Shown here in pieces: positions 10,223-23,572 of a stretch of DNA of 64,000 bases. Each line of letters starts with the position of its first letter. Within the stretch, counting starts at the first letter, position 1. Under the pieces are notes generated by a model. The model searched no databases. It was given only the letters and a program-made list of their open reading frames with translations, and was not told where the DNA came from. Source of the DNA: an uncultured Lachnospiraceae bacterium (lineage in GTDB: Bacteria > Bacillota > Clostridia > Lachnospirales > Lachnospiraceae); contig CANRIV010000008.1 of assembly GCA_947630805.1 (NCBI GenBank), positions 4,458 through 68,457 of the forward strand. Reading direction: 5' to 3'. The position numbers and the translations under genes were made by a program.

Positions 10223-11179
10223 CTATTCACCCGTAATACCGGTGTTTTCAATACCTTGTATAAACTGCTTTTGTACTAAAGCATATAAAATCAACAATGG
10301 CGCAATCGCTATCAGAGTGGCCGCCATTCTATTTGCTTCGTTGACTGCATTTCCAGTTCCGCTCGCTGCTCCATTGTCAAATAATGCCAGTTTTCCCGGA
10401 AGCAGTTCTAACGCATCACCGAGCATAATGTTTGTTGTATAAGTCTCGTTCCAGTTAAATACGAAAGAAAACAGAAATACAACAAGTATTGTTGCCATAG
10501 ATAAACGGATTGCTACATGATAAAAAACTTTTATCGAGCCCGCACCATCAATCATGGCAGCCTCATCCAGTGATTTTGGTATCATATTAAAGAAATTGTA
10601 GAATATCAAAATCAACATCGTAGAATAAGTTCCCTGTCCCAGTAACGACATTAAGAACTGTGGCACAACAGAGTTAATCAGTTTGATTCCGATAATGTTC
10701 TCAAATGTACCAAATAAAATGATTCGTGGTACGGTAAGAAGTGGTACCGGAAGAATAAATGCCACGATAAGCATCACAAACCACAAGTTGTGACCCCGGA
10801 ATGTATAACGGGATAATGCAAATCCTGTGGTGGCGGACACTGCTGTCTGTGCCACTGCCAGTAATGCTGAAAATCCAATCGAGTTAATCAGGGACGTTGG
10901 AATATTCAACGTAGATATTGCATTTTTAAAGTTCTCCAATGTAGCATGCTTTGCAATCCATGTGATGGATGGATCAATTAAGTCCTTAGAGGTCATAATT
11001 GACTTGGACACCATTTCAAAAATAGGCTCCAGGAATATAAATCCAATACATATCAACAAAAAGTATATTGCTACTTTGGAAACAATCTGAACTATTTTCA
11101 GTTTCTTTAATTTGGCAAAGTTGATTTTCTTTACAGATGACAAACCAATTTTCTTTGCACTAATATTTTTATTTGCCAT
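10223..11179 (-). CDS. Carbohydrate ABC permease (MalG-like), second pair
   Basis: Six TM segments, SLDEAAMIDGA EAA loop, FSFVFNWNE motif. Confidence 0.9.
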   Translation of the reverse strand: MANKNISAKKIGLSSVKKINFAKLKKLKIVQIVSKVAIYFLLICIGFIFLEPIFEMVSKSIMTSKDLIDPSITWIAKHATLENFKNAISTLNIPTSLINSIGFSALLAVAQTAVSATTGFALSRYTFRGHNLWFVMLIVAFILPVPLLTVPRIILFGTFENIIGIKLINSVVPQFLMSLLGQGTYSTMLILIFYNFFNMIPKSLDEAAMIDGAGSIKVFYHVAIRLSMATILVVFLFSFVFNWNETYTTNIMLGDALELLPGKLALFDNGAASGTGNAVNEANRMAATLIAIAPLLILYALVQKQFIQGIENTGITGE

Positions 11180-12281
11180 ATAACTTTGCCTCCTTTGCCT
11201 GATGTCTTCTCTGGGCAGCTAATCTCTTCTGCTGCTGCTTTTCCAGTTTCTTCAGTTTCTTTTCCTGTTTCTGTCTTGCCTTGATATCTTTTGGTTTTCT
11301 GTCTTTGAAGAGAAGGAATACAATTCCTACGATAATCAAAACGACAATACTGTAAATCCATGCGTATGTGGCGGCATAACCCAGTCCGCTTCCGGTCTCA
11401 CCGGTTTTTTCTTCAATTAACTTATAAACCGGGTTGATGGAATTGAACATACCAATCTGGATTACTGTAAATACAGTGATAATCAATCCTATCTGTTTTA
11501 ACATTGGTATTGTAATCTTCCACATAATCTGCCAAGCATTGGCGGAGTCAATTTTTGCCGCTTCATAAATGCTTGGATTAATTTTCTGTAAACCGTTGAT
11601 AAACAATACAATCGGAATACCGGTAAACCAGAGAATAATGGATAACTGGTCAAATATGTCTGCAAGCCCTGTCGCCAATGCCGGCGAATAACTATGTATA
11701 ATCTGCATGATGAAAATATTGGAGTAAGCATTCGTTTTCATCACGGCTTCCGACACCTGCTCTGCAGCCGTTTCTGCTGCATTTTCTACCGCTAATATCT
11801 GTGTCATGACAGGACCGGACATAATAACTACCGGAAGGAAATAAATTGTTCTCAGAATTCCCTTTCCTGTTTTAATCTTACATAACAGGTATGCGATGAT
11901 AAATGATAATACAACTACAATACATGTATAAGGTACAATCATTTTCAGGTATTCCAGCAGCGCCGGAAGAAATTCCGTATTCTTTACGAACGCTTCAATG
12001 TAATTGGAAATACCTGTAAAGTCAATCTCGTATCCGAGTGTTGTCTTTTTTACATTTGTAAAACTCAAATAAATTGTAAATACAAATGGGAATAAGGTAA
12101 ACAATGCAAAACCTAAAATCCAAGGAGCCATGAACATATATCCTGTTCTGTCCTGTCTCTGCTGATAGGTACGCATCTTTTTCTTCTTCACTTTTTTCTC
12201 CTTCGTCAAAGCTGTAGTAGTCTCTGACGCTGTAGTAGTTTCTGGAGTTGTTACTGCTGCTTTTTTCTTGTCTTCAGCCAT
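11169..12281 (-). CDS. Carbohydrate ABC permease (MalF-like), second pair, with extended charged termini
   Basis: YMFMAPWILGF, RTIYFLPVV, SIYEAAKIDSA (EAA Gly replaced by Ser), basic C-terminal tail. Confidence 0.88.
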   Translation of the reverse strand: MAEDKKKAAVTTPETTTASETTTALTKEKKVKKKKMRTYQQRQDRTGYMFMAPWILGFALFTLFPFVFTIYLSFTNVKKTTLGYEIDFTGISNYIEAFVKNTEFLPALLEYLKMIVPYTCIVVVLSFIIAYLLCKIKTGKGILRTIYFLPVVIMSGPVMTQILAVENAAETAAEQVSEAVMKTNAYSNIFIMQIIHSYSPALATGLADIFDQLSIILWFTGIPIVLFINGLQKINPSIYEAAKIDSANAWQIMWKITIPMLKQIGLIITVFTVIQIGMFNSINPVYKLIEEKTGETGSGLGYAATYAWIYSIVVLIIVGIVFLLFKDRKPKDIKARQKQEKKLKKLEKQQQKRLAAQRRHQAKEAKLYGK

Positions 12282-14800
12282 TATTTAACACCTCCTTCTA
12301 AAACCTGGGCACTCATTGGAGCCACCGTTGTACCGCCTACAGTTACTTCTTCTTCTGTATAATTGATGACAATACTGCGTTTTGATCCATCTTTTGAATA
12401 ATTATTGCATATAATGCCATCCTGTAATACTTTTCTTCCATCCCACTGATATCCTATTACCTGGGAAAGTGGGGTGTTTACTGTATTGTATATAGTCTGT
12501 ACCAGCTCTTCATACTGCTCAAACTCTGTAGAATAATAATCCGAAGAAGTTGTAGCAGCCAACAGGTACGATGGCTCTTTTGTCAGAACAAAGGATGGTG
12601 AAATATTATAATCTATCATTCTCAGCATATCTGTCTGGGAATAGAAAGAGAAGTTCGCATATGGCGCATATACTTCCATTGTTCCGTAAAGCACCATCTG
12701 AAGGAATGGCACAGTGTCTGTCTCATATACGTATTGGGACGTTCCAACCGGTGACTGCAGGTATCGGTCTGTATATTTCCACAAATACTGATTTGGATTT
12801 ACCAGATTTACTTTTGTGCCTGCCTTCTTTATTTTTTCTATTTCTGTCTGGTACATCTTAATTGCCTGTGAAACTGTAGAATCCACACCATCACTGCTGT
12901 AGGAACTTACTAATACATTGGATGCACCTTCTATTGTAAATGACTTACTTAAATCTCCCAGATCTTCGTACAAATCAGAAATCCACTGAGCCGTTTTCTT
13001 TGGCGTAGCATATCCATACTCTGTAACCGGTACATTTTCCGGCAATACTCCGGATTTATTTACTTCTAGATACTGTGTATTCATATGCTTTGCTGCCGTT
13101 CCATAATATCCTACCATGTCTTCATTGATTGTCGTAAATTCTCTTGAGAAAGATATATCAATATTTTTCTTCTGGAACTCAGCCATCAAATCTTCAAAAT
13201 CACTCTTCTTTCCGATATTCGCTGAGAAATGAGTGCTGTTTGGTTTGGAGAGCGTCTGTCCGCCGCTCTGCCAGCCGATAATTCCTGAATTGATATTTTT
13301 TACTCCGTCATCCACCAGCTTGTTTAATATATTTCTCACATCATCTGCTGTAGTGACAACGACTTCCTGTGTAGAGAATACACCTTTTTTGGAATCTGAC
13401 ATCAGGAAATCAATCCGGATTGGAATATTTTCACCTTTCTCCTGCATTTCTGTCAGTGTTCCATTATCAATCAGATGCTGTCTGTAAGCTTTTGCCATAC
13501 CCGCATAATCTGCAGATGGCTTTCCATCGCTTCCGTCCCCACTGAGGAACTGATAGGTCATGGATATATCATATTTATTTGGATTGTCCTGAATCTTACG
13601 ATAAGATTCTCCTGCCTGGTTAATTACCTGATAAAATGCAGAATTAAATTTAAATGCAGGATATGCGTAAGTATATCTCATTTCTCCTTCTGCCGTGGAA
13701 GCAGGTGTCGCATTAATCGACATATATTCATCGCCGCTGTCTGCGTATGCCACAAATGCCGCCTGTGTACCATCACCATGGGAGATACCGAATACCGGCA
13801 TCGTTGGGTTTTTCAGTGGTACGACATCACTCATAGAAGAATAATATACGGATTGGATGGAAGGATCCTGTCCATAAACGCTTCCGGTATAACTGCTGAA
13901 TTTGGCTATATTTTCCGTAAATCTTACCAGGGCGCCGCTTCCGTCAGGAATTAATGCGTAACCCGGTGTAACTTTCTTTCCGGTCAATTTTACCCAGTCT
14001 TCTGCTTTTTTGTCATATGCCAGAGTAGCGCCGCCACTTGTTCCTAAGAACGGCGTGATCACAATGTTGGAAATCAGCCCTGTAGCGTCTCCTGTAATTT
14101 CTTCATATGGAATATCGTATTGAATGTTTCCATCTTCTCCAAAAGTAATATGTACATTAACGCCGAGTTCTTTATCTTCAATGTTGAATAAACATTTCAA
14201 AACATATTTTCCATTGGCGCTGTCTTCTTCTTCCATTCCTGAAGTTCCATCGTCCTCATCGTATGCAGCAGATGACACTCTCGTAGTGGTCATGCTGGTA
14301 CCTTCTCCCGTAAAATATTCTATTGTGATTAAGGAATTGGCAAAAGCTGCATACTGGTCATTGGCAAAAGAGGAATCCTTTGGCTCATTGGCAAGCGCTC
14401 TTACCTGTTCCGGTGTGATACCCAGTTCTTCTGCATAATCTTTCACTGCAGACGGATCATTGTCTTCCTTCGCACCGGCTACCACGTCATAAGCTTCTTC
14501 AATCTGGCTTGGCAGTGCAATATCTACACCTGTCTTCCAGATATATCCGCTTTTCGTATTTTCAATTAAAATAATATCTCTGTCATCACGGAAATAATAT
14601 TTGTAATCTCCTCTCTCACAGAGAAGTACATACGCGTTGCTCTTTTCAAGATGGGACGTTACCCTGTCCGGTGCAGGTCTTGTATCTCTGTTTGTGTTAA
14701 GAAACGCAGCTCCCACCGCTACGCCAAGTGAAAGGACACATAAGAGAGATACCACAAGTGCTGTTATTTTTAATTTACTATGCTTAGCTGCCTGTAACAT
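12281..14800 (-). CDS. DUF5696-like membrane-anchored extracellular protein (839 aa)
   Basis: One N-terminal hydrophobic anchor, acidic body; LIPDGSGALVRF and MPVFG segments and position between permease pairs match my recollection of DUF5696 proteins. Confidence 0.7.
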   Translation of the reverse strand: MLQAAKHSKLKITALVVSLLCVLSLGVAVGAAFLNTNRDTRPAPDRVTSHLEKSNAYVLLCERGDYKYYFRDDRDIILIENTKSGYIWKTGVDIALPSQIEEAYDVVAGAKEDNDPSAVKDYAEELGITPEQVRALANEPKDSSFANDQYAAFANSLITIEYFTGEGTSMTTTRVSSAAYDEDDGTSGMEEEDSANGKYVLKCLFNIEDKELGVNVHITFGEDGNIQYDIPYEEITGDATGLISNIVITPFLGTSGGATLAYDKKAEDWVKLTGKKVTPGYALIPDGSGALVRFTENIAKFSSYTGSVYGQDPSIQSVYYSSMSDVVPLKNPTMPVFGISHGDGTQAAFVAYADSGDEYMSINATPASTAEGEMRYTYAYPAFKFNSAFYQVINQAGESYRKIQDNPNKYDISMTYQFLSGDGSDGKPSADYAGMAKAYRQHLIDNGTLTEMQEKGENIPIRIDFLMSDSKKGVFSTQEVVVTTADDVRNILNKLVDDGVKNINSGIIGWQSGGQTLSKPNSTHFSANIGKKSDFEDLMAEFQKKNIDISFSREFTTINEDMVGYYGTAAKHMNTQYLEVNKSGVLPENVPVTEYGYATPKKTAQWISDLYEDLGDLSKSFTIEGASNVLVSSYSSDGVDSTVSQAIKMYQTEIEKIKKAGTKVNLVNPNQYLWKYTDRYLQSPVGTSQYVYETDTVPFLQMVLYGTMEVYAPYANFSFYSQTDMLRMIDYNISPSFVLTKEPSYLLAATTSSDYYSTEFEQYEELVQTIYNTVNTPLSQVIGYQWDGRKVLQDGIICNNYSKDGSKRSIVINYTEEEVTVGGTTVAPMSAQVLEGGVK

Positions 14801-16850
14801 TTCTTATAATCTCCTTTCCTACTGTTAATAAGAAGTCTGCCAACTGTTCCCACATGATAATTACTACAAGTACTACGATTGCTGCAATTAACATAAACGC
14901 TACTGTGATAATCAGACTAAGAACAGTACTCTTGAAATCGTAATCATGCACAGTTGAAAGTCCTTCAAATATGGTTGCAATACTCCAACCTACGCCAATA
15001 ATCATAATCACTGTAAGGATAAATGATTCATTGTATGTCAGTACATAAGACATTCCTATGGTAATCAGCATACATATCATCGCCGGAATACATCCATATG
15101 CCGGAATCATATATACCTGTTTTAATGTTCCATCACCGTCAGTAATCGATGTTACCAGATAATTACATACGATAAAGAGAATTAATATTGCAAAGAAACC
15201 TACAATAACGGCTCCCATATCCATATCTTCGACTTTCGTATACTGGTAAATAAATCCTTTTCCGGTCTGATAAAGCATATACACACCAAAGAATATAATA
15301 TATATAATCGTTGCTACCACTACCGAGCCGTTTTTATGAACTCTGATATCGTAATATCTGTCAATCGGATGTTTTGCACACTTAAAGGCGTATCCGATTT
15401 CTCCGATAATCGGCGTATTCTTTAATTTTTGGCCGATAGCTTTCTTCTTCTGTTTGATAACTTTATTTCTATCAACAAGTGTAATAACAATCTTTAATAA
15501 GATAAGAATGATAAGTACAATCAGCACTGTTCCCAACCACTTCTGGATAGATTCGTTTCTCACTTCCCAGAATGCGTCGGAATATCCGGAGCGGTTACCG
15601 GCAATTTCAAAATCTTCCATTGCCTTGTCATATACTTCATCATTGTAATATGCCTTTGCAACACCATTATGGGCCAGCACTGACATCTGATTCAGTCTTA
15701 ATACATAACTCCAGTCTTCCAGGGCCTCGTCATAATCACCATTTTCGTACTCCCGCAGAGCCTTATAGATTGTCGTTGCATATTCTGTCGGCGTAAAGGA
15801 CTGTAAAAATCCTTTCTTTCCATCTGCCGTCCAGATATTTCCTTCGTTGTCTATTGCGAGTGTTGTCAGAGATGAGAACAAACCTGAAATATCCGTATCC
15901 ATTGCCTGTTCACCCAGTGAGAAAATAACTTCTCCCGCATTTGTGTAAATCCAGATATAACCCTTGGAATCACTGGTATAAATAATACCATTGTCATCTG
16001 TCGTGACATCCGTCAGGGATTCTGAGGCGATTATGGCATTGTTAAACATATTTGTACCATCCGTACTATGTTTCTTTAACAAATCGTCCCCTACACCCAT
16101 ACACGTGGAATATGCTGTACCTTCTTTATCTACATAGATATTAGAAAATGTAGATGGCAGTGTGTTCAAAATCTCCGATTTCTTTTCCTGCTCTTTTGTG
16201 TAAATAATTTTGAGGAACATCTGCTGTGGGGTAAGTCGAGACTTGTTGGAAGTAAAATATCCTAAAAACTCACCCGTGTTCGCCAGCTGGATGACACCTG
16301 CATACACACCCTCGGAAACAATATATAAATTATTTCCACTGTCTACGGCAATTTTACTTGGCTCATAGTTCGTACCCGCAAAAATTGGTGCCGTAGGCTC
16401 ATCATACTGTCTTACGTATTGATAGTCTTTTGTGAATCTGTATACTGTTCTTGCTCCTGCATCTGCAATATACAGTTCTCCTTCATTTGTTCTGTAAATA
16501 CCTTTTGGTGTAGTAAATCCTTTGAAATCTTTTGATTGAATTGTCTCGCCACTCAATATCTTAATGATTTTTTCCGTATTCAAATCAAAAACCACGATTC
16601 TCTTATTACCGGTATCTACGATATATAAATGGTTATTTTCATCAATCACCATGTCTTCCGGATCGGTAAGTCCCAAATCCGTAATTGTTCTGTCCGGCAA
16701 ATATGCATCCTGTGTTCTAACCAGATTTTCCTGGTCATCCAGCGTATAAGTATAGCTTGTCGCCTGTGAAGCGGCTACAGGAAGCACTGACATCACTACA
16801 AATATCAATGCCAGAAGCAAAACCAATGATTTTTTCCATAATTTCTTCAT
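14784..16850 (-). CDS. NHL/beta-propeller + TPR + Yip1-like multi-pass membrane protein (688 aa)
   Basis: Signal peptide; NHL-like blades (DPEDMVIDENNHLYIVDTGNKRI, TPKGIY...ELYIADAG, EPSKIAVDSGNNLYIV); TPR-like helices (AHNGVAKAYY); one TM, then five C-terminal TMs. Confidence 0.75.
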   Translation of the reverse strand: MKKLWKKSLVLLLALIFVVMSVLPVAASQATSYTYTLDDQENLVRTQDAYLPDRTITDLGLTDPEDMVIDENNHLYIVDTGNKRIVVFDLNTEKIIKILSGETIQSKDFKGFTTPKGIYRTNEGELYIADAGARTVYRFTKDYQYVRQYDEPTAPIFAGTNYEPSKIAVDSGNNLYIVSEGVYAGVIQLANTGEFLGYFTSNKSRLTPQQMFLKIIYTKEQEKKSEILNTLPSTFSNIYVDKEGTAYSTCMGVGDDLLKKHSTDGTNMFNNAIIASESLTDVTTDDNGIIYTSDSKGYIWIYTNAGEVIFSLGEQAMDTDISGLFSSLTTLAIDNEGNIWTADGKKGFLQSFTPTEYATTIYKALREYENGDYDEALEDWSYVLRLNQMSVLAHNGVAKAYYNDEVYDKAMEDFEIAGNRSGYSDAFWEVRNESIQKWLGTVLIVLIILILLKIVITLVDRNKVIKQKKKAIGQKLKNTPIIGEIGYAFKCAKHPIDRYYDIRVHKNGSVVVATIIYIIFFGVYMLYQTGKGFIYQYTKVEDMDMGAVIVGFFAILILFIVCNYLVTSITDGDGTLKQVYMIPAYGCIPAMICMLITIGMSYVLTYNESFILTVIMIIGVGWSIATIFEGLSTVHDYDFKSTVLSLIITVAFMLIAAIVVLVVIIMWEQLADFLLTVGKEIIRNVTGS

Positions 16851-16862
16851 AAATTTGCCTCC

Positions 16863-17732
16863 TTACTTGATACCCGAATGACTCATTGTGTTCATAACCT
16901 TAGACTGCATCGAAATGAATATGATTAAGTTTGGAACAAACATAATCAAGTTGGCCGCCGCGACCATACCGGATGCTGCCACCGCGTTATTAACACCAAT
17001 CGAGTTTACGTAATATGTCAATGTCCTTAGAGTTTCATTCGTTATGTAATTGTTTGAAGTCTCCACGTTCTGCCATACCTGCTGGAACGTCAGCACTACC
17101 GATGTGGCAAGTGCAGGTTTCGTCAACGGAATAATTACTTTTCTCAAAATCGTAACATCTCCTGCGCCATCTACAACTGCCGCTTCAATCAGTGCATCCG
17201 GAATACCGTCAACGAACTGTTTTACGAGGAACAGTCCTACCGGCATTGCAATCAGCGGAAGAATATGTGCAAACCATGTATTGTAAGCGCCAATCTTAAC
17301 AATAATCAGATATCTTGGAATTGCCACTGCTGTTGCTACGAACATCAGTGCCATCTGGTTTACTTCCCACAAAGCGCCTTTAATTTTAAATTTCTTTTTA
17401 GAGAAAACATAAGCCGCCATAATGGTAATAATTAAGTTTAATACAACGGTCAGTACCGTTACAATAACGGAATTTAACAGATATCTTGACATTGGGATAC
17501 CTGTAGAGCCCGCCAGATTCATCAAATTCTTAAAATTGTCTAACGTAGGATTCTGCACAAAAAGCGTTGGTGGGAATCTAAACAATTCACCAAGAGGCTT
17601 AAACGCATTGTTTATCAAATATACTACCGGAAGGATCATAAATATTGACAAAGGAAATGCGATAATATGAAATTTAATCTGACTCGAAGAAAATCTGGAT
17701 GGATTAATTCTGTTACCTTGAAAATTTGCCAT
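16863..17732 (-). CDS. Carbohydrate ABC permease (MalG-like), first pair
   Basis: NAFKPLGELFRFPP, ALIEAAVVDGA EAA loop, six TMs. Confidence 0.92.
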   Translation of the reverse strand: MANFQGNRINPSRFSSSQIKFHIIAFPLSIFMILPVVYLINNAFKPLGELFRFPPTLFVQNPTLDNFKNLMNLAGSTGIPMSRYLLNSVIVTVLTVVLNLIITIMAAYVFSKKKFKIKGALWEVNQMALMFVATAVAIPRYLIIVKIGAYNTWFAHILPLIAMPVGLFLVKQFVDGIPDALIEAAVVDGAGDVTILRKVIIPLTKPALATSVVLTFQQVWQNVETSNNYITNETLRTLTYYVNSIGVNNAVAASGMVAAANLIMFVPNLIIFISMQSKVMNTMSHSGIK

Positions 17733-17748: not shown

Positions 17749-18693
17749 CTAGTATTCATCTTTTTCTGTAAACAGTTTATTTGCTACTTTACTGCACAAC
17801 CACACTAACGCTAATAATGCAACAGATACTGCCGCTGCATATCCCATTTCGTAACGGACAAATGCATAGTCATCAATATGGTTTGCAATCAACTGTCCGG
17901 AATATTCCGGCGTTGGGTTTGCGCCTGCAAGGGCTACACCAATCCAGCCCATGTTGAACGCGTTTACAATCGCCATAACCGCACCGAATAACATCTGCGG
18001 TTTCATGGAAGGAACTGTAATGTAAATAATTTCCTGCGCCCTGTTCTTAATTCCGTCCACATATGCTGCTTCATATAATTCCTGATCAATGTTCATAATA
18101 CCGGAAAGCATAGACAAAAATCCGATACCCATGGATGACCATAAGGATACAAAAATCATAATCAGCATAAAGTAGTCCGAACTAATCAGCCATTGGATTG
18201 GCTGGCTTATAATACCGAGCTTCTGCAGATAAGCATTGGCAAGACCGCTCTGGTCGCCGGAAAAGATGGTTTTCCAGATAACCTGAATCATAAGCTGACC
18301 TACCATGGAAGGGGTATACATTGCCAGCGCATATAATGTTCTTGCCCTTGGTGTTACCTGAGCCAGTATCCATGCCATAATGAATGACAGGACATATCCG
18401 CCCACACCTACGACCAGCGCATACAATACTGTGTTCGGCAATACATATTTCATGAATACTTCATCCCCTGTAAGCAGTGTTATGAAGTTGTTCATTCCTG
18501 CAAAACTTGGTGTATTGATAACGTCAAAATATGTAAATCCCAAACCGATTGCTATTATAATAGGTAATAATATAAAGGTAAAAAACAATAATCCATAAGG
18601 GAGCATAAGCACAAATGAATGAAATGCTTCTGTCTGAAAGAATTTTTTACCTGTCCGGGCTTTTGCCGGTTTTACAGCAGCAGTACTACTCAT
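17749..18693 (-). CDS. Carbohydrate ABC permease (MalF-like), first pair
   Basis: MLPYGLLFFTF, ELYEAAYVDG EAA loop, GYAAAVSVAL. Confidence 0.92.
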   Translation of the reverse strand: MSSTAAVKPAKARTGKKFFQTEAFHSFVLMLPYGLLFFTFILLPIIIAIGLGFTYFDVINTPSFAGMNNFITLLTGDEVFMKYVLPNTVLYALVVGVGGYVLSFIMAWILAQVTPRARTLYALAMYTPSMVGQLMIQVIWKTIFSGDQSGLANAYLQKLGIISQPIQWLISSDYFMLIMIFVSLWSSMGIGFLSMLSGIMNIDQELYEAAYVDGIKNRAQEIIYITVPSMKPQMLFGAVMAIVNAFNMGWIGVALAGANPTPEYSGQLIANHIDDYAFVRYEMGYAAAVSVALLALVWLCSKVANKLFTEKDEY

Positions 18694-21600
18694 TCTTACT
18701 TACCTCCTCTTCCGGATTTGCTTTCGCCTTATCCTGATTTTCTTTTATCCAATCGTATCCACGAAGCTTAAACTTCTTAACCATCTTTTCATTATCGTCG
18801 TAATATCCCAATTCCTGCATTTTACGTACGATTTCTTTGTTTACGTCGTTCTTCGCTTCATCTACGGCTACCTGTCCTGCCGTACCGTCGAATACCATTG
18901 TGGTCCAGATATTGGAAATTGTTCTTTCCAACAAATACTGTCCCGGTGTTCTGGTTACATCTGTTACATAATCAATCTGTTCTGTTACAACTTTCTTGTC
19001 CGCCTCGTCCATTGGATTGTTTTCCAAAGCGGCTCTGTTTGCAGACAACCAGAAGAATGTTTTTCCGTATGTGGAACGAAGTGTGTAGGTATACTCTGTC
19101 TGTACCTGTTTGCTGGTCCACCATTTGAGGAATTCCCAGGACTCATCTTTCTTTTCGGAATCTTTAAAGATAACGCCACCCGTTCCGTTTGCAACGAACG
19201 TTCTGTTGACTGTACCATCTTCCTGTGGTGTTCCGATATATTTTGAAATTGCCCACTTACCATCTAACTCTCTGGCACCGTTTTTAATCAGTGTGTAATC
19301 CTCCATACCGATAATACCTATCGGCAATACAGAATAACGGAATGAGTTAAAGAATGTATTTACTGAAGTTTCCAAGGAATACTTCGTAAATAAATCGCCA
19401 AGCAGCTGAAGTCCTTTTACGGAATTTTTGGAATCTATACCTGTAGTAACAATTCCTTCATCATCCTGTACATACAATTCACCCTTATTCTGTAAAATCA
19501 TTGGAGCTGTCTGATAAAACCATTTATAACCCGTTGTACCAAGAGAAATATTATGATAGAAATTCATTCCATATCTCTGGAGCGTTGGGAGAATCTGAAT
19601 TAATTCATCCCATGTATCCGGAACTTCCAGTCCCAGCTGATCCATAATATCTGTTCTGTAAACAACCGCGTTGAAGTCTGTTGTCTCCGGTATTGCATAC
19701 ATTCCTTCGTTATATACATAGGAAACAAAAGAGCCTGTTGGGAATCTTCTGGCTACAGTCCAGAAATCATCAAACTGTGTCAAATCATATAAAGCTCCAC
19801 GGCTGGACAAATCAAATGGAACATAAGACATGAGTCCCAATGCGATATCCGGTGTCTCATCTGCTGCAATGGCCAGTGTTATCTTACTGATATCCGGCAT
19901 TGTGGCAACTTTAACTTTAATATCTTTTCCGGTCTTTTCTTTATAATAAGGAACAAACTCTGTATCTGCCATCTTCTGTAACAGGTCTACATGGGTAATC
20001 GCTCTGTTGACCCAGATAGTAACAGTGTCTTCATCTTCCGTAGCCCCTGTCGCATATTTATCTGATGTAAATGTGTTTAAAAGAGTTCTTAAAGAAGTCC
20101 AGATAGAACTTGCCACGGATGGATTTGCCTTTTCCAAATTTTTCTCGTTGCCATGAATATATATTCTATCCAGTGTAAATTCATTGGACGTTACTTCTGT
20201 AGTAAAGTTACTCAGAGAAACGAGTATGGAGTTATCTGCTCCGGTCAAATCTTTTGTGTGAAGCGCAACTTCATCCGGATATTTCTGCATCTGATTGATG
20301 AATTCCTCTGCTTCATCCAAATATGCAAGCACTGCTCCGGCATTACCATTGGAAGAATATTTCTGAAGCATATATCTGATATGCTGAATCATTACTTCAT
20401 AGGCATCCAGATATTCCGGTATTTCTGGAATGTATTTTGTCATCTTCCAGTTACGCTCTGTATCTACATCGCTACCTGTAATCTTTGTGATTTCCAGTTC
20501 AAAATCCGTTATGTGCTGCTGTAGCAGTAAAGCATATCGGTATGCCTCCATAACAGGCTCATTTTCCTGCTTGATGGATATCGTATGCTTTCCTTCTGTC
20601 AGATAGAAATTATAGTAATTTCCATCTTTGTCGCTCAGCGTCTCGTTCTGATATCCTGAAGATACCGGAGCAAAAGCATAGTTGTACATTTCTTTAAAAG
20701 GTACCTGTCCATCAATCTTTATTGTTTCAAATGTCTGGAATTCTTTTTTGCTGTTCTGATAATGGAATGCGATATTATAATTTCCGCTCTTCTTTACATT
20801 AAAAGTATATTCTACTTCAATTCCTGCCGCATTCCATTTTAATGTATTTAATTTTTCATGATCTATGTTGAATCTTGTAAGTGAAGTTTTTGTCTCTGTG
20901 CCATAAATAGCATCCGTAGAATTTTTCCGTGTATAATATACGCCGTCTATCTGAAGTGCATCTTTCTTATCAGTAACCAGCTCTGCATCACTGTGCTGTG
21001 CTGCGTATTGCTCATAAGAAACAATATCTGTCGTTCCTTCCTGCACTTTCAATGCTCCAAGTGCCAACCCACCGGAGGAAACATTTTCTATTTCAATGGT
21101 ATTGTTTCCTTTTTCCAGGTAGAAGCACAATGGCGTACTGGATACATAAGTATTGTTATATAAATATGTATTTGTCCATACCTGAATTCTATTCTGGCTT
21201 GGAGGCATTTCATCTCCATAACTGTCTAATGGAAATTCTTTCCGGGCATCGCTGCTGACATAAGTATCTTTGTCCACATCTGTCCAGAGAATTGGGAGAG
21301 CAATTGTTTTCATTTCTGAATACTGCTGTTTTCCGTTTACAGCAACATTTACCGTGTAATCAGATAATGACTCTCCTACCGAAATATAATCTACAGACAG
21401 ATAATAAAGCCCTGCTTTTTTTACACTGACCTGATATTGTGCTTTGTCAGTATAGTCCAGTTCTACCATATCTTCGCTGTAGTCTTTTACAGCTTCCGGT
21501 ACTGTAGTGTCTGAATTTTCTTTCTTTTTACTTGTATAATAGTCATTGACATTTATGCCATTTTTTAATGTGGCCTGATATGAGCCGCTTCCGATATCCT

Positions 21601-21814
21601 TATTATCCTGAATAAAATCCGTGTAATAAACTTCCGGTTCTTCGCCCTCATTAAGATAAGCACTGGATAACAGATTATAAGCTTGCTCAAGCTTCTGGCT
21701 GTCTGCATCTTTTATGTATGTCGCTTCTTTTTTGAATACAAACTGATTCAGACAAACAGCCACAACAATGACACATATGACGCCTATTATGATTCCAATT
21801 ACTTTCTTTTTCAT
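18686..21814 (-). CDS. Very large membrane-anchored solute-binding protein (~1042 aa) with N-terminal CBM-like domains
   Basis: Start ATG 21814 (SD AAGGAAGGA). TM anchor KKKVIGIIIGVICVIVVAVC; two beta-sandwich-like blocks (VKKAGLYYLSVDY, VKKSGNYNIAFHY); C-terminal family-1 SBP (VVYRTDIMDQLGLEVPDTWDEL, SWEFLKWWTS). Confidence 0.8.
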   Translation of the reverse strand: MKKKVIGIIIGVICVIVVAVCLNQFVFKKEATYIKDADSQKLEQAYNLLSSAYLNEGEEPEVYYTDFIQDNKDIGSGSYQATLKNGINVNDYYTSKKKENSDTTVPEAVKDYSEDMVELDYTDKAQYQVSVKKAGLYYLSVDYISVGESLSDYTVNVAVNGKQQYSEMKTIALPILWTDVDKDTYVSSDARKEFPLDSYGDEMPPSQNRIQVWTNTYLYNNTYVSSTPLCFYLEKGNNTIEIENVSSGGLALGALKVQEGTTDIVSYEQYAAQHSDAELVTDKKDALQIDGVYYTRKNSTDAIYGTETKTSLTRFNIDHEKLNTLKWNAAGIEVEYTFNVKKSGNYNIAFHYQNSKKEFQTFETIKIDGQVPFKEMYNYAFAPVSSGYQNETLSDKDGNYYNFYLTEGKHTISIKQENEPVMEAYRYALLLQQHITDFELEITKITGSDVDTERNWKMTKYIPEIPEYLDAYEVMIQHIRYMLQKYSSNGNAGAVLAYLDEAEEFINQMQKYPDEVALHTKDLTGADNSILVSLSNFTTEVTSNEFTLDRIYIHGNEKNLEKANPSVASSIWTSLRTLLNTFTSDKYATGATEDEDTVTIWVNRAITHVDLLQKMADTEFVPYYKEKTGKDIKVKVATMPDISKITLAIAADETPDIALGLMSYVPFDLSSRGALYDLTQFDDFWTVARRFPTGSFVSYVYNEGMYAIPETTDFNAVVYRTDIMDQLGLEVPDTWDELIQILPTLQRYGMNFYHNISLGTTGYKWFYQTAPMILQNKGELYVQDDEGIVTTGIDSKNSVKGLQLLGDLFTKYSLETSVNTFFNSFRYSVLPIGIIGMEDYTLIKNGARELDGKWAISKYIGTPQEDGTVNRTFVANGTGGVIFKDSEKKDESWEFLKWWTSKQVQTEYTYTLRSTYGKTFFWLSANRAALENNPMDEADKKVVTEQIDYVTDVTRTPGQYLLERTISNIWTTMVFDGTAGQVAVDEAKNDVNKEIVRKMQELGYYDDNEKMVKKFKLRGYDWIKENQDKAKANPEEEVSKNE

Positions 21815-21839
21815 TGTTGTCCTTCCTTTTGTCATAAAA

Positions 21840-21866
21840 GCGGAACTACAAATCAGGTAGTTCCGC
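21840..21866 (-). terminator. Stem-loop downstream of the first SBP gene
   Basis: GCGGAACTAC / GTAGTTCCGC, perfect 10 bp, followed by TTTT on the minus strand. Confidence 0.65.
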
Positions 21867-21895
21867 AATTACTTATGTGATTAAACCCTTAATAT

Positions 21896-23572
21896 TTATT
21901 TTAAGTCTGCGTCTGTCTTTCCATAATATTGTTTTAAGGCTTCTTTTAACTGCGTCTGTGCTGTCTGAATACGCTTATTACATGTCTCGTTCCAATCAGA
22001 TAATCTTGATTTAACATTATCTGCCCAGTCTTTGTCTGTAAACCATGCGCCTGCTACTTCTTCCTGACCACAGTTAACCCATTCATATAAGGTGTCCTTT
22101 GTCTCGCCATTTTCAGTTACTGTACTGGTCCAGCATTTGTCGATGTAATCCCATGTCTTTCCTTCCTGCCAAATCTTCAGTACTTCCTGGAATCCTTCTT
22201 TGTCTTTGTAAACTTTATGTGCTGGAAGACTGTTCCAGATTTCCATCTGCTCATCATAAGCATCACCGGATACTACTGGGAAAGAATCTCCTGCTGCAGA
22301 CTTAATCTGTCCGTTTTCTGCCCACTGCTGGTCAAATACTGCCTGCTTTGCAACAGTACTTGCAGTCCAGAAAGATGCAAATGTGTATGCGATATCTAAT
22401 TTCTTCTTTTCTGCGTCACTCCACTCAGGATTTTTGTCATCCAGAGCATAATTGTGAAGACAGATAGGATCCATGATTAATTTAATTGTATTTTCACAGT
22501 AATCTGTAGATGGGTATGGATAAATATCCCAGTCAGATGATTTTATGTAAGCATCACTATCTTTTGCCGACTCATCTGCCCCTGCTGTCAAAAACCAAGG
22601 ATCTTCAAAGTTTACAAGAGAACGGTTGTTTGTAAAGTAATACCAGGAATAATCCGTACATTCTTTTACGATATCTACTGTGATATTCTTTGAGCCTTTT
22701 GCCACATCAATAGATTTCTCAGCCCATTTAGGGAAATATTTCAAAAGTGATTTTACTTCGTCGCTGTCCAGTTTTACTTCATTCTTTTCTGAAATCATTT
22801 TATTAATACTGTTTGTTCCAAGATTAACAATATTAACCGGTGTACCTTTCGCACCCCAGAATTCTTTTCCGTCTGCTTTTGTAACAAAACGTGTATATTC
22901 ATCAATATTCCAGTCAGGCTTTGGTACGTTGATGTTGTTATCCTGTGCCAACGCTTTATTTACCCAGATACCTCCCGGAATTGTATAAGATGGAAGTCCT
23001 GCCTGGAAACCATAATAATTCAGATTTTCCATCAGGGATTTGTTATATTTCTGATAATTTTCATCATCTTTATAAACAGACAAATCTGCAACAAGACCCT
23101 TCTTGATGTCGTTCGTAACATTTGTGGAGCCCCAGATATCAGGATATTTTCCATATTTTGCCTGGAAATTTTCCATCTCCTGCTCCCATGATGCTGTGTT
23201 GTACTGGTCAGGATCTCCTACTTTTGACCAGAGATTAATTTTAATATTTGGATATGACTCATGGAACTTCTGTGCCACTGCATATACCTGTGCTACATTG
23301 CTTGCAACAATTTTCTTTGGATCCGATAATTTCTTTCCTGCATCGCTGTCAGGATTTCCAATATCTTCATAGTATTCTCCATCACCGGACCATACCATAA
23401 TGGAAATGTCGCCCGCCGTATCTTTTGCCAATCCTGTTGTTATACCAAGTTCATCAGAGCTCCCACCCTTTGAATTTGATTTTCCTCCGCCGGCACATCC
23501 TGTCAATAACATAGATGTTCCAAGAACAAGAGAAAGTGATAAAGCTAATGCTTTACGGCCTAATTTTTTCAT
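21896..23572 (-). CDS. Lipoprotein solute-binding protein, family 1 (558 aa)
   Basis: Lipobox LLTGC, SD AAGGAGG; PDIWG, GIWVNKAL and PKPDWNIDEY SBP-like segments. Confidence 0.88.
   Translation of the reverse strand: MKKLGRKALALSLSLVLGTSMLLTGCAGGGKSNSKGGSSDELGITTGLAKDTAGDISIMVWSGDGEYYEDIGNPDSDAGKKLSDPKKIVASNVAQVYAVAQKFHESYPNIKINLWSKVGDPDQYNTASWEQEMENFQAKYGKYPDIWGSTNVTNDIKKGLVADLSVYKDDENYQKYNKSLMENLNYYGFQAGLPSYTIPGGIWVNKALAQDNNINVPKPDWNIDEYTRFVTKADGKEFWGAKGTPVNIVNLGTNSINKMISEKNEVKLDSDEVKSLLKYFPKWAEKSIDVAKGSKNITVDIVKECTDYSWYYFTNNRSLVNFEDPWFLTAGADESAKDSDAYIKSSDWDIYPYPSTDYCENTIKLIMDPICLHNYALDDKNPEWSDAEKKKLDIAYTFASFWTASTVAKQAVFDQQWAENGQIKSAAGDSFPVVSGDAYDEQMEIWNSLPAHKVYKDKEGFQEVLKIWQEGKTWDYIDKCWTSTVTENGETKDTLYEWVNCGQEEVAGAWFTDKDWADNVKSRLSDWNETCNKRIQTAQTQLKEALKQYYGKTDADLK

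Follow-up and report, generated by a model that had tools for sequence, protein, structure and literature searches.

The window analyzed here, a stretch of 64,000 nucleotides from an uncultured Lachnospiraceae bacterium (GenBank assembly GCA_947630805.1, contig CANRIV010000008.1, positions 4,458 to 68,457), contains at positions 14784-16850 of the minus strand an ATG-started frame for a 688-residue protein that combines a beta-propeller and tetratricopeptide repeats (TPR) with a membrane-embedded Yip1 domain. The genes of the surrounding cassette are labelled A to H, with E as the propeller-Yip1 protein and F as a DUF5696 protein. Gene E is an obligate and cassette-specific member of a fixed module B-C-D-E-F-G-H, in which C, D, G and H encode two pairs of ATP-binding cassette (ABC) permeases of the CUT1 type and B a giant membrane-anchored substrate-binding protein (SBP). 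We consider it about an even chance (probability roughly 0.5) that E serves as a cassette-specific membrane adaptor, which couples F and the tethered SBP B to the twin CUT1 importers.

The fixed module is evident from the distribution and the genomic context of E. A search among 1.84 billion representative proteins revealed 1108 clusters of homologues (E <= 1e-30), whose public names are restricted to 'YIP1 family protein'; nearly all of the best 150 have a length of 660-710 residues and align from end to end with 26-46% identity. Scanning one genome per species with a profile seeded by a 10-sequence alignment of E yielded at least 382 E-type loci in Lachnospiraceae, Oscillospiraceae, Erysipelotrichaceae, Acholeplasmataceae, Izemoplasmatales, Haloplasmataceae and Defluviitaleaceae, and also in Paenibacillus, Evansella, Alkalihalobacillus, Treponema and metagenome-assembled genomes (MAGs) of Spirochaetales. 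From the matches listed, 79 loci were used for a synteny analysis, in which open reading frames (ORFs) were called and labelled by the window's own proteins. The complete order B-C-D-E-F-G-H is present in 60 of these loci, and the remaining 19 are truncated at a contig border or contain one unlabelled gene. E is located between D and F in all 79 loci as well as in 17 of 17 further cassettes, and none of these 96 inspected loci showed E in any other gene context; frequent occurrence outside carbohydrate loci, which the first-pass annotation had named as an argument against a role at the transporter, was therefore not observed. Gene A is optional and sits either before B or after H. In addition, the start of F overlaps the stop of E or lies within 20 nt of it in 72 of 73 loci, and in the window the ATG of F is located 17 nt inside the end of E.

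The tie between E and F is also visible at the level of whole genomes. In a sample of 151 Lachnospiraceae genera E was found in 32 genomes (about a fifth), and full-length DUF5696 proteins (E <= 1e-90) are present in exactly the same 32 genomes (Fisher p = 1.7e-33). A phylum-wide sample contained E in 32 of 401 genomes (~8%). In the source genome of the window a single Yip1 gene exceeds the family cut-off, and DUF5696 is likewise represented by one gene. Although the ATPase of the importers is shared and encoded elsewhere, an own copy of E is present in every cassette, even where one Paenibacillus genome contains 10 of them; E is thus cassette-specific and not generic. Pfam detected 10 Yip1 matches in Paenibacillus castaneae, three in Bacillus caseinilyticus and two in Evansella vedderi, and all 15 appear to be cassette genes: eight short ones were shown in their context, two long ones belong to analyzed loci and five are E-length frames.

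Some individual loci are worth mentioning in this context. Paenibacillus castaneae DSM 19417 (6.3 Mb; L058, L118-L122) harbors five short Yip1 genes, each in a cassette with a split E gene, and five long frames of E length, one of which was shown in a cassette (L058). Complete A-B-C-D-E-F-G-H cassettes are present in a Treponema sp. MAG (L042) and a Spirochaetales MAG (L047), both with 38-39% identity in E, which suggests a transfer of the whole module into double-membrane bacteria. Broken frames that do not coincide with the usual split site were seen in three loci (L023, E 263 + 409 aa; L048, E 565 + 115 aa and F 694 + 139 aa; L021, B 705 + 282 aa) and are possibly frameshifts, assembly errors or decaying copies. 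In the source genome a weak Yip1-like match of 16.8 bits, below the cut-off and within a 566-aa ORF (G000:C5:59918-60106, L002), is probably a chance match of hydrophobic helices.

All the elements that the first-pass annotation had read from E, namely a signal peptide, about six NHL blades, TPR-like helices, one transmembrane (TM) helix, a basic loop and five further TM helices, were recovered by Pfam, hydropathy and AlphaFold2. The gene starts 12 nt past the stop of the upstream permease gene D, and an AAGGAGG ribosome-binding site is located 8 nt before the ATG. On the minus strand, residues 1-27 (16770-16850) form a Sec-type signal peptide (MKKLWKK, a hydrophobic core and VAAS/QA), identified by hydropathy and by the same N-terminal pattern in homologues, and its cleavage is predicted. 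Residues 34-354 (15789-16751) correspond to a six-bladed NHL beta-propeller, which is supported by Pfam NHL and SGL matches, by similarity to PknD and Pizza proteins, by AlphaFold2 and Foldseek and by conservation; the NHL match reaches 60 bits at a cut-off of 20 and lies inside a wider propeller-type match. A helical insert (208-224) and a TQDAY.P strand (46-52) of the propeller are conserved. It is followed by four helices (356-417, 15600-15785), which probably represent two TPR motifs: Pfam places TPR helices at 363-417 with TPR_11 (366-403) as best model at 25.4 bits, below its cut-off of 26.8, a sequence search against the PDB matched a consensus TPR at E = 1.6e-9, and the model shows the same helices. 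A single long helix (420-462, 15465-15593) continues into TM1 (441-459), as indicated by hydropathy, AlphaFold2 and conservation, and leads to a basic cytoplasmic linker (463-507, 15330-15464) assigned by hydropathy and conservation, with 13 K/R and the motif HP.D..Y at 494-500. The five-TM Yip1 domain covers residues 508-665 (14856-15329) according to Pfam PF04893, hydropathy, AlphaFold2 and conservation, and the C-terminal helix with the invariant E680 (666-688, 14787-14855), recognized from the homologue comparison and AlphaFold2, is predicted to be extracytoplasmic. The PF04893 match spans residues 494-659 with 58.6 bits at a cut-off of 28.6 and nearly the whole profile (positions 6-172 of 173); the whole-genome scan gave a Yip1 score of 61.9 bits.

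Hydropathy alone resolves a signal-like helix at 9-27, an acidic ectodomain of 413 residues (28-440), TM1, a loop (460-507) that has 13 K/R and includes the stretch KVIKQKKKAIGQKLK, and five TM peaks in the Yip1 part (508-526, 548-566, 581-604, 610-628 and 647-665). The predicted topology with the linker inside and the C-terminus outside fits the positive-inside rule. An AlphaFold2 model of the E monomer, built on 63 homologues (mean predicted local distance difference test score, pLDDT, 87.3; predicted template modelling score, pTM, 0.75), confirmed with confidence the layout of propeller, TPR, TM1 and five TM helices, a check that had been proposed together with the original reading of the gene. 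In this model six four-stranded blades (34-354) with a two-helix insert (208-224) are followed by the four TPR helices (356-417), a continuous helix that runs from outside into the membrane (420-462), three cytoplasmic helices (464-503) and the Yip1 helices 510-529, 545-569, 576-601, 606-635 and 639-686, the last of which reaches outward. Foldseek against the PDB retrieved the six-bladed NHL domains of TRIM71, Thin and TRIM2 and the PknD-derived Pizza designs including Pizza6 (target TM-scores 0.72-0.83, E = 1e-15 to 1e-12), and both the sequence and the Foldseek searches of the PDB gave matches for propeller and TPR only and none for the membrane half.

A natural variant of the gene supports this division into modules. 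In 14 inspected cassettes and a fifteenth one (L104) E is split into two adjacent and often overlapping genes between D and F, one for propeller, TPR and TM helix (E1, ~490 aa) and one for Yip1 (E2, ~210 aa), and the cut point is the cytoplasmic linker. The two modules are thus distinct units that are kept together. The free-standing Yip1 gene E2 encodes 205-222 residues, scores 64.9 bits against PF04893 and belongs to a family with at least 1150 matches, which are named only 'YIP1 family', 'DUF2070 family' or 'hypothetical'. A 1039-aa frame in one genome that looked like a natural fusion of E and F was rejected, as it turned out to be a longer F adjoining a split E.

Among the 63 homologues the conservation of E peaks in the juxtamembrane helix and in the Yip1 loops and not in the pocket of the propeller. 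The most conserved motif is GYSDAFWEVRN (422-432) in the juxtamembrane helix; further conserved stretches are YLVTSITDGDG (564-574), which follows the second Yip1 helix and is predicted to face the cytoplasm, TGEFLGYFTSN (192-202) in blade 3, LTYNE (604-608) on the predicted outer side, HP.D..Y in the linker and E.H.Y (633-637) in the Yip1 domain, predicted cytoplasmic.

To compare the divergence of the cassette proteins, we analyzed five of the paralogous cassettes of one Paenibacillus genome. The mean identity is highest for the permeases C (0.59) and D (0.53), followed by G and H (0.43 each), B (0.42), E1 (0.39), E2 (0.38) and F (0.34), which indicates that both halves of E diverge with the cassette-specific surface proteins and not with the conserved C/D pair. 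Furthermore, rate covariation was calculated from the distance matrices of seven proteins in 46 complete cassettes, with a cubic detrending against the mean of the others and a correlation of the residuals; the analysis was also run within and between clades and with Mantel permutations, whereas an earlier linear version could reflect rate classes. The residuals of E and F correlate with r = 0.56 overall, the highest value of all 21 pairs, and with 0.63 within and 0.35 between clades. Both permease pairs, which served as positive controls, are below this value (C-D, r = 0.43; G-H, r = 0.42). For B the correlation is 0.47 with F and 0.36 with E, and E against C, D, G and H ranges from -0.01 to 0.22. 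The membrane half of E alone correlates with F (0.50) and B (0.32), but not with G (-0.06) or H (0.03). These values have to be read with the caveat that the pairs are non-independent and that no other protein of the cassette evolves as fast as E, F and B; on the other hand, G and H evolve almost as fast without correlating with E, which argues against a pure artefact in the E-F signal. At the level of sequence comparison, rate covariation thus points to F and B as partners of E.

Based on these results, the adaptor model can be outlined as follows. E would be a stoichiometric subunit of a twin ABC importer for glycans. Within the membrane, its Yip1 domain and juxtamembrane helix would contact the single-pass anchors by which F and B are held, with the permeases as possible further membrane contacts, and the propeller-TPR platform would hold B and the ectodomain of F over the two translocation channels. 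In this way fragments of a glycan that are caught at the cell surface (in the present case beta-1,3-glucan, cut by GH16; GH, glycoside hydrolase) could be handed on without being lost by diffusion. E would act like YknW, which controls the assembly of the single-pass-anchored YknX with YknYZ. The first-pass annotation had already suggested a scaffold that links extracellular binding proteins to the permeases; the exclusive tie to the cassette in 96 loci, the co-occurrence with DUF5696, the own copy in each cassette and the covariation with F and B all fit this suggestion, while the physical link itself is something we infer. More tentatively, and with less confidence than the adaptor function as such, E, a GH129-shaped F and a B equipped with carbohydrate-binding modules (CBMs) may form one extracytoplasmic platform that is bolted by Yip1 onto two ABC importers.

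Several points weigh against the adaptor model. Synteny and co-occurrence indicate a shared function and not contact, the structure models are monomers, so that contacts of E are deduced indirectly, and the common rate class of E, F and B may inflate the covariation. The partner of YknW is a MacB-type exporter with membrane domains unrelated to CUT1 permeases, and E is likened to YknW by description and not by sequence. Finally, the propeller of E could bind a glycan instead of a protein.

This last point leads to the rival explanation that survives best, although we regard it as unlikely: E could be a surface glycan-binding protein, in which a propeller lectin feeds the SBPs or F and the Yip1 domain is merely an anchor. 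Beta-propellers are able to bind carbohydrates, each cassette has its own E with a divergence among paralogues that is close to that of B, and like other surface proteins E has a large, acidic ectodomain. However, a six-helix anchor with conserved cytoplasmic motifs exceeds what is needed, as B and F use one helix, and the most conserved elements are juxtamembrane and intramembrane. A substrate-specificity determinant would be expected to diverge faster than observed: between beta-glucan-type and arabinan-type groups the propeller (32% identity) is not more divergent than the Yip1 domain (27%). CBM-like additions are also absent from the longer E variants: those with 720-850 residues contain only NHL/propeller, TPR and Yip1 domains, and their additional length consists of more propeller.

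Two further alternatives appear improbable to us. E might be a regulatory or gating subunit on the cytoplasmic side, which controls the engagement of a shared MsmX/MalK-type ATPase while the propeller-TPR part reports occupancy outside. Three of the most conserved motifs (HP.D..Y, SI.DGEG and E.H.Y) lie on the predicted cytoplasmic face, and as the ATPase is shared and encoded elsewhere, its allotment between two channels is conceivable. Yet Pfam and NCBIfam detect no known signalling or nucleotide-binding domain in E, its membrane half covaries with F and B and with no permease, and the idea depends solely on the positive-inside topology. A sensor-kinase-like reading, by analogy to PknD, was rejected, because E lacks an output domain and the locus already contains LacI as a regulator. 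Alternatively, with a similarly low probability, E could act as an assembly factor, i.e. a membrane chaperone for F, B or the permeases outside the mature complex. TPR and propeller modules are frequent in envelope assembly factors, and YknW is described as an assembly modulator of its partners (PMC4887032). This is difficult to reconcile with a gene that is tightly placed in the operon and translationally coupled to F, as both features suggest roughly equimolar synthesis as for a structural subunit, and a generic chaperone would not need an own copy per cassette even with 10 cassettes per genome. An additional channel or translocation component, as also considered in the first-pass annotation, would fit the six TM helices and the gene position between two permease pairs, but it is very improbable, and this part of the early interpretation found no support: the EAA loops kept in all four permeases indicate two complete membrane channels, E has no similarity to transporter families in Pfam, NCBIfam or the PDB, and we know of no transport function of Yip1 domains.

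Returning to the adaptor model, the closest precedents are bacterial Yip1 proteins next to ABC exporters, and the earlier statement that the bacterial role of Yip1 proteins is not known is outdated. YknW of Bacillus subtilis is a Yip1 protein reported to modulate the assembly of the ABC exporter YknXYZ (PMC4887032, PMC4338810), and in bacteriocin clusters Yip1 genes of the BawG type occur together with genes for ABC exporters (PMC10707071). Similar to YknW and BawG, E is a bacterial Yip1 protein in an operon with membrane subunits of ABC transporters (96 of 96 loci), and the split E2 is, like BawG with its 223 residues, a free-standing Yip1 protein of 205-222 residues (PMC10707071). In contrast to YknW, which works with a MacB-type exporter and a membrane fusion protein, E stands alongside CUT1-type importers and SBPs; labelling of the cassette genes by Pfam and NCBIfam revealed no HlyD or FtsX-like gene. 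Furthermore, a propeller-TPR ectodomain of 440 residues plus one more TM helix is part of E or, in the split form, its partner, and E is always accompanied by DUF5696. No YknW-type Yip1 protein was found in the three Bacillales genomes mentioned above, in which every Yip1 match appears to be a cassette gene. E may have a mode of action similar to that of YknW, but we do not classify it as an orthologue, since its cassette partners are importers. By analogy, E might be regarded as a Yip1 accessory subunit of ABC transporters that belongs to importers and bears an ectodomain.

With the eukaryotic Yip1/YIPF proteins (Yip1p, Yif1p, YIPF1-7) E shares a PF04893 match above the cut-off and five TM helices, and the arrangement with a cytoplasmic segment before the domain and a C-terminus on the opposite side is also predicted for E (PMC6682643). 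The eukaryotic proteins are located in the endoplasmic reticulum and Golgi, have a cytosolic N-terminal region and interact with Rab GTPases, whereas E resides in the bacterial plasma membrane, is encoded in a transporter operon, exposes its N-terminal domain on the extracytoplasmic side and has one TM helix more. Rab/Ypt partners are absent from bacteria, and Rab binding or a role in vesicle traffic characterizes the eukaryotic Yip1 subfamily rather than the domain. PknD of Mycobacterium tuberculosis (PDB 1rwi) likewise has an extracytoplasmic, membrane-tethered six-bladed NHL propeller and matches E at 2.5e-13, but it joins the propeller to a cytoplasmic kinase, while E lacks an output domain and contains the helical insert, TPR and Yip1 parts.

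The proposed partner F is an 839-aa DUF5696 protein with an N-terminal anchor (12281-14800, minus strand; Pfam, AlphaFold2 and Foldseek). According to an AlphaFold2 model (pLDDT 90.3, pTM 0.91) the anchor is followed by a beta-sandwich, a (beta/alpha)8 barrel and a C-terminal beta-sandwich. Foldseek identified the GH129 enzymes 8rzk, 5opq and 5wzn as best matches (E = 1e-28 to 1e-23, target TM-score ~0.72), followed by GH101, GH36 and GH31, and judged by this model F seems to be a glycosidase-shaped protein. D286, D464, D469 and D730 are conserved acidic columns, position 554 is D in 51 and N in 7 of 63 sequences, and no obvious invariant catalytic pair was found among the conserved acidic columns. 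The 16 Lachnospiraceae genomes that have DUF5696 relatives but no E contain only shorter versions of ~630 aa (range about 560-700), and these cassette-free relatives match the Pfam families GH101, GH129 and DUF6259 directly (e.g., L101:1412-3295 on the minus and L102:1675-3354 on the plus strand). They may represent a free-standing enzyme family that is ancestral to the F of the cassette.

As described in the first-pass annotation, the neighbors of E in the window are those of a sugar transporter: Pfam confirmed four BPD_transp_1 permeases, two binding proteins, DUF5696, GH16 and LacI. Genes A to H are part of a long minus-strand operon. Gene A (21896-23572) codes for a 558-aa lipoprotein binding protein with an LTGC lipobox, the optional second SBP, as assigned by Pfam, lipobox and synteny. 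Gene B (18686-21868; Pfam) encodes the giant membrane-anchored SBP of ~1042-1060 aa with an SBP_bac_1 domain at residues 627-923. C (17749-18693) and D (16863-17732) form the first permease pair of the CUT1 type, and G (11169-12281) and H (10223-11179) the second one, all four on the minus strand and identified by Pfam and NCBIfam together with their EAA loops. B and F are attached to the membrane by single-helix anchors. Downstream (3') of H the window contains a secreted GH16, a LacI repressor, a 1068-aa protein, GH94 and GH17. A hairpin scan revealed the only strong terminator-like structure of the minus strand in the 10.2-21.9 kb region between A and B, and no terminator was found between B and H. 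This hairpin (21840-21866) consists of a 10-bp stem followed by a T run and overlaps a TTG-started 5' extension of B; therefore, B probably starts with the ATG at 21814.

No ABC ATPase is encoded at the locus of the window. The source genome (1.84 Mb) has a single MalK/MsmX-type ATPase on another contig (G000:C7:23021-23197, L105; OB_MalK domain, 65 bits), which presumably energizes both pairs of permeases along with further CUT1 systems of the genome, if present. ATPase-like ORFs near the cassette were found in 3 of 79 loci, leaving 76 without. In this respect the cassette resembles published GH161/GH94 loci, which also lack an ATPase gene (PMC6484121). In Acholeplasma laidlawii PG-8A two adjacent clusters have been reported, one with GH94, an SBP and permeases and the other with GH161 and two permeases but no SBP (PMC6484121). 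Their gene content matches that of three loci of Acholeplasmataceae (L032, L037 and L044); E and F would then be the genes left without a name between the two permease pairs, and judged by the published gene content both clusters are probably a single cassette of the E kind.

The cassette is not bound to one substrate but combined with different glycan-degrading enzymes. The cassette of the window is flanked by GH16/GH161/GH94, and those of close relatives by GH16, the 1068-aa protein, GH94 and also GH161, pointing to beta-1,3-glucan. In contrast, at ~30% identity 16 of the 61 flanking genes scanned encode GH43, 9 GH51 arabinofuranosidase and 9 extra SBPs, in addition to GH5 and GH3.

C, D, G, H and the SBP domains are ordinary members of CUT1 ABC oligosaccharide importers of the MalEFGK2 type. 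However, a standard CUT1 system consists of one SBP and one permease pair, whereas the cassette comprises two pairs, a 1000-residue tethered SBP, E and DUF5696, and an accessory subunit of the E kind was not found in the literature searched on CUT1 importers. A functional analogy, and only this, exists with the Sus systems of Bacteroidota, which likewise combine a modular uptake core with changing glycan-specific enzymes and place surface proteins beside the transporter. Sus uses an outer-membrane TonB-dependent transporter with SusD, while the cassette is located in the cytoplasmic membrane with ABC importers, and both have no homologous parts. A full-text literature search retrieved no paper on DUF5696, on the E protein or on the cassette and none in which Yip1 is connected to NHL domains together with permeases, to glycoside hydrolases or to polysaccharide utilization. 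The points that are new for E are the exact match in occurrence with DUF5696, the site of fission in the linker, the map of conserved stretches, the divergence ranking of the paralogues and the rate covariation.

Gram-positive fibre degraders of gut, rumen and soil are thought to import oligosaccharides by one SBP and two permeases, whereas the cassette described here has seven or eight parts. If the platform model is true, the cassette would encode a machine of several subunits with which single-membrane bacteria capture and import glycans, a functional counterpart of Sus, and Yip1 would be an organiser of ABC importers that had not been recognised before. The Yip1 fold is ancient and common to the eukaryotic secretory pathway, and clarifying the function of E would give it a defined role in a bacterial importer. 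It would also reveal how monoderm bacteria coordinate, at their membrane, the steps of capturing, processing and importing glycans. As the cassette is modular and exists in beta-1,3-glucan and arabinan versions, its understanding would help to predict more reliably which dietary fibres are used by which gut bacteria.

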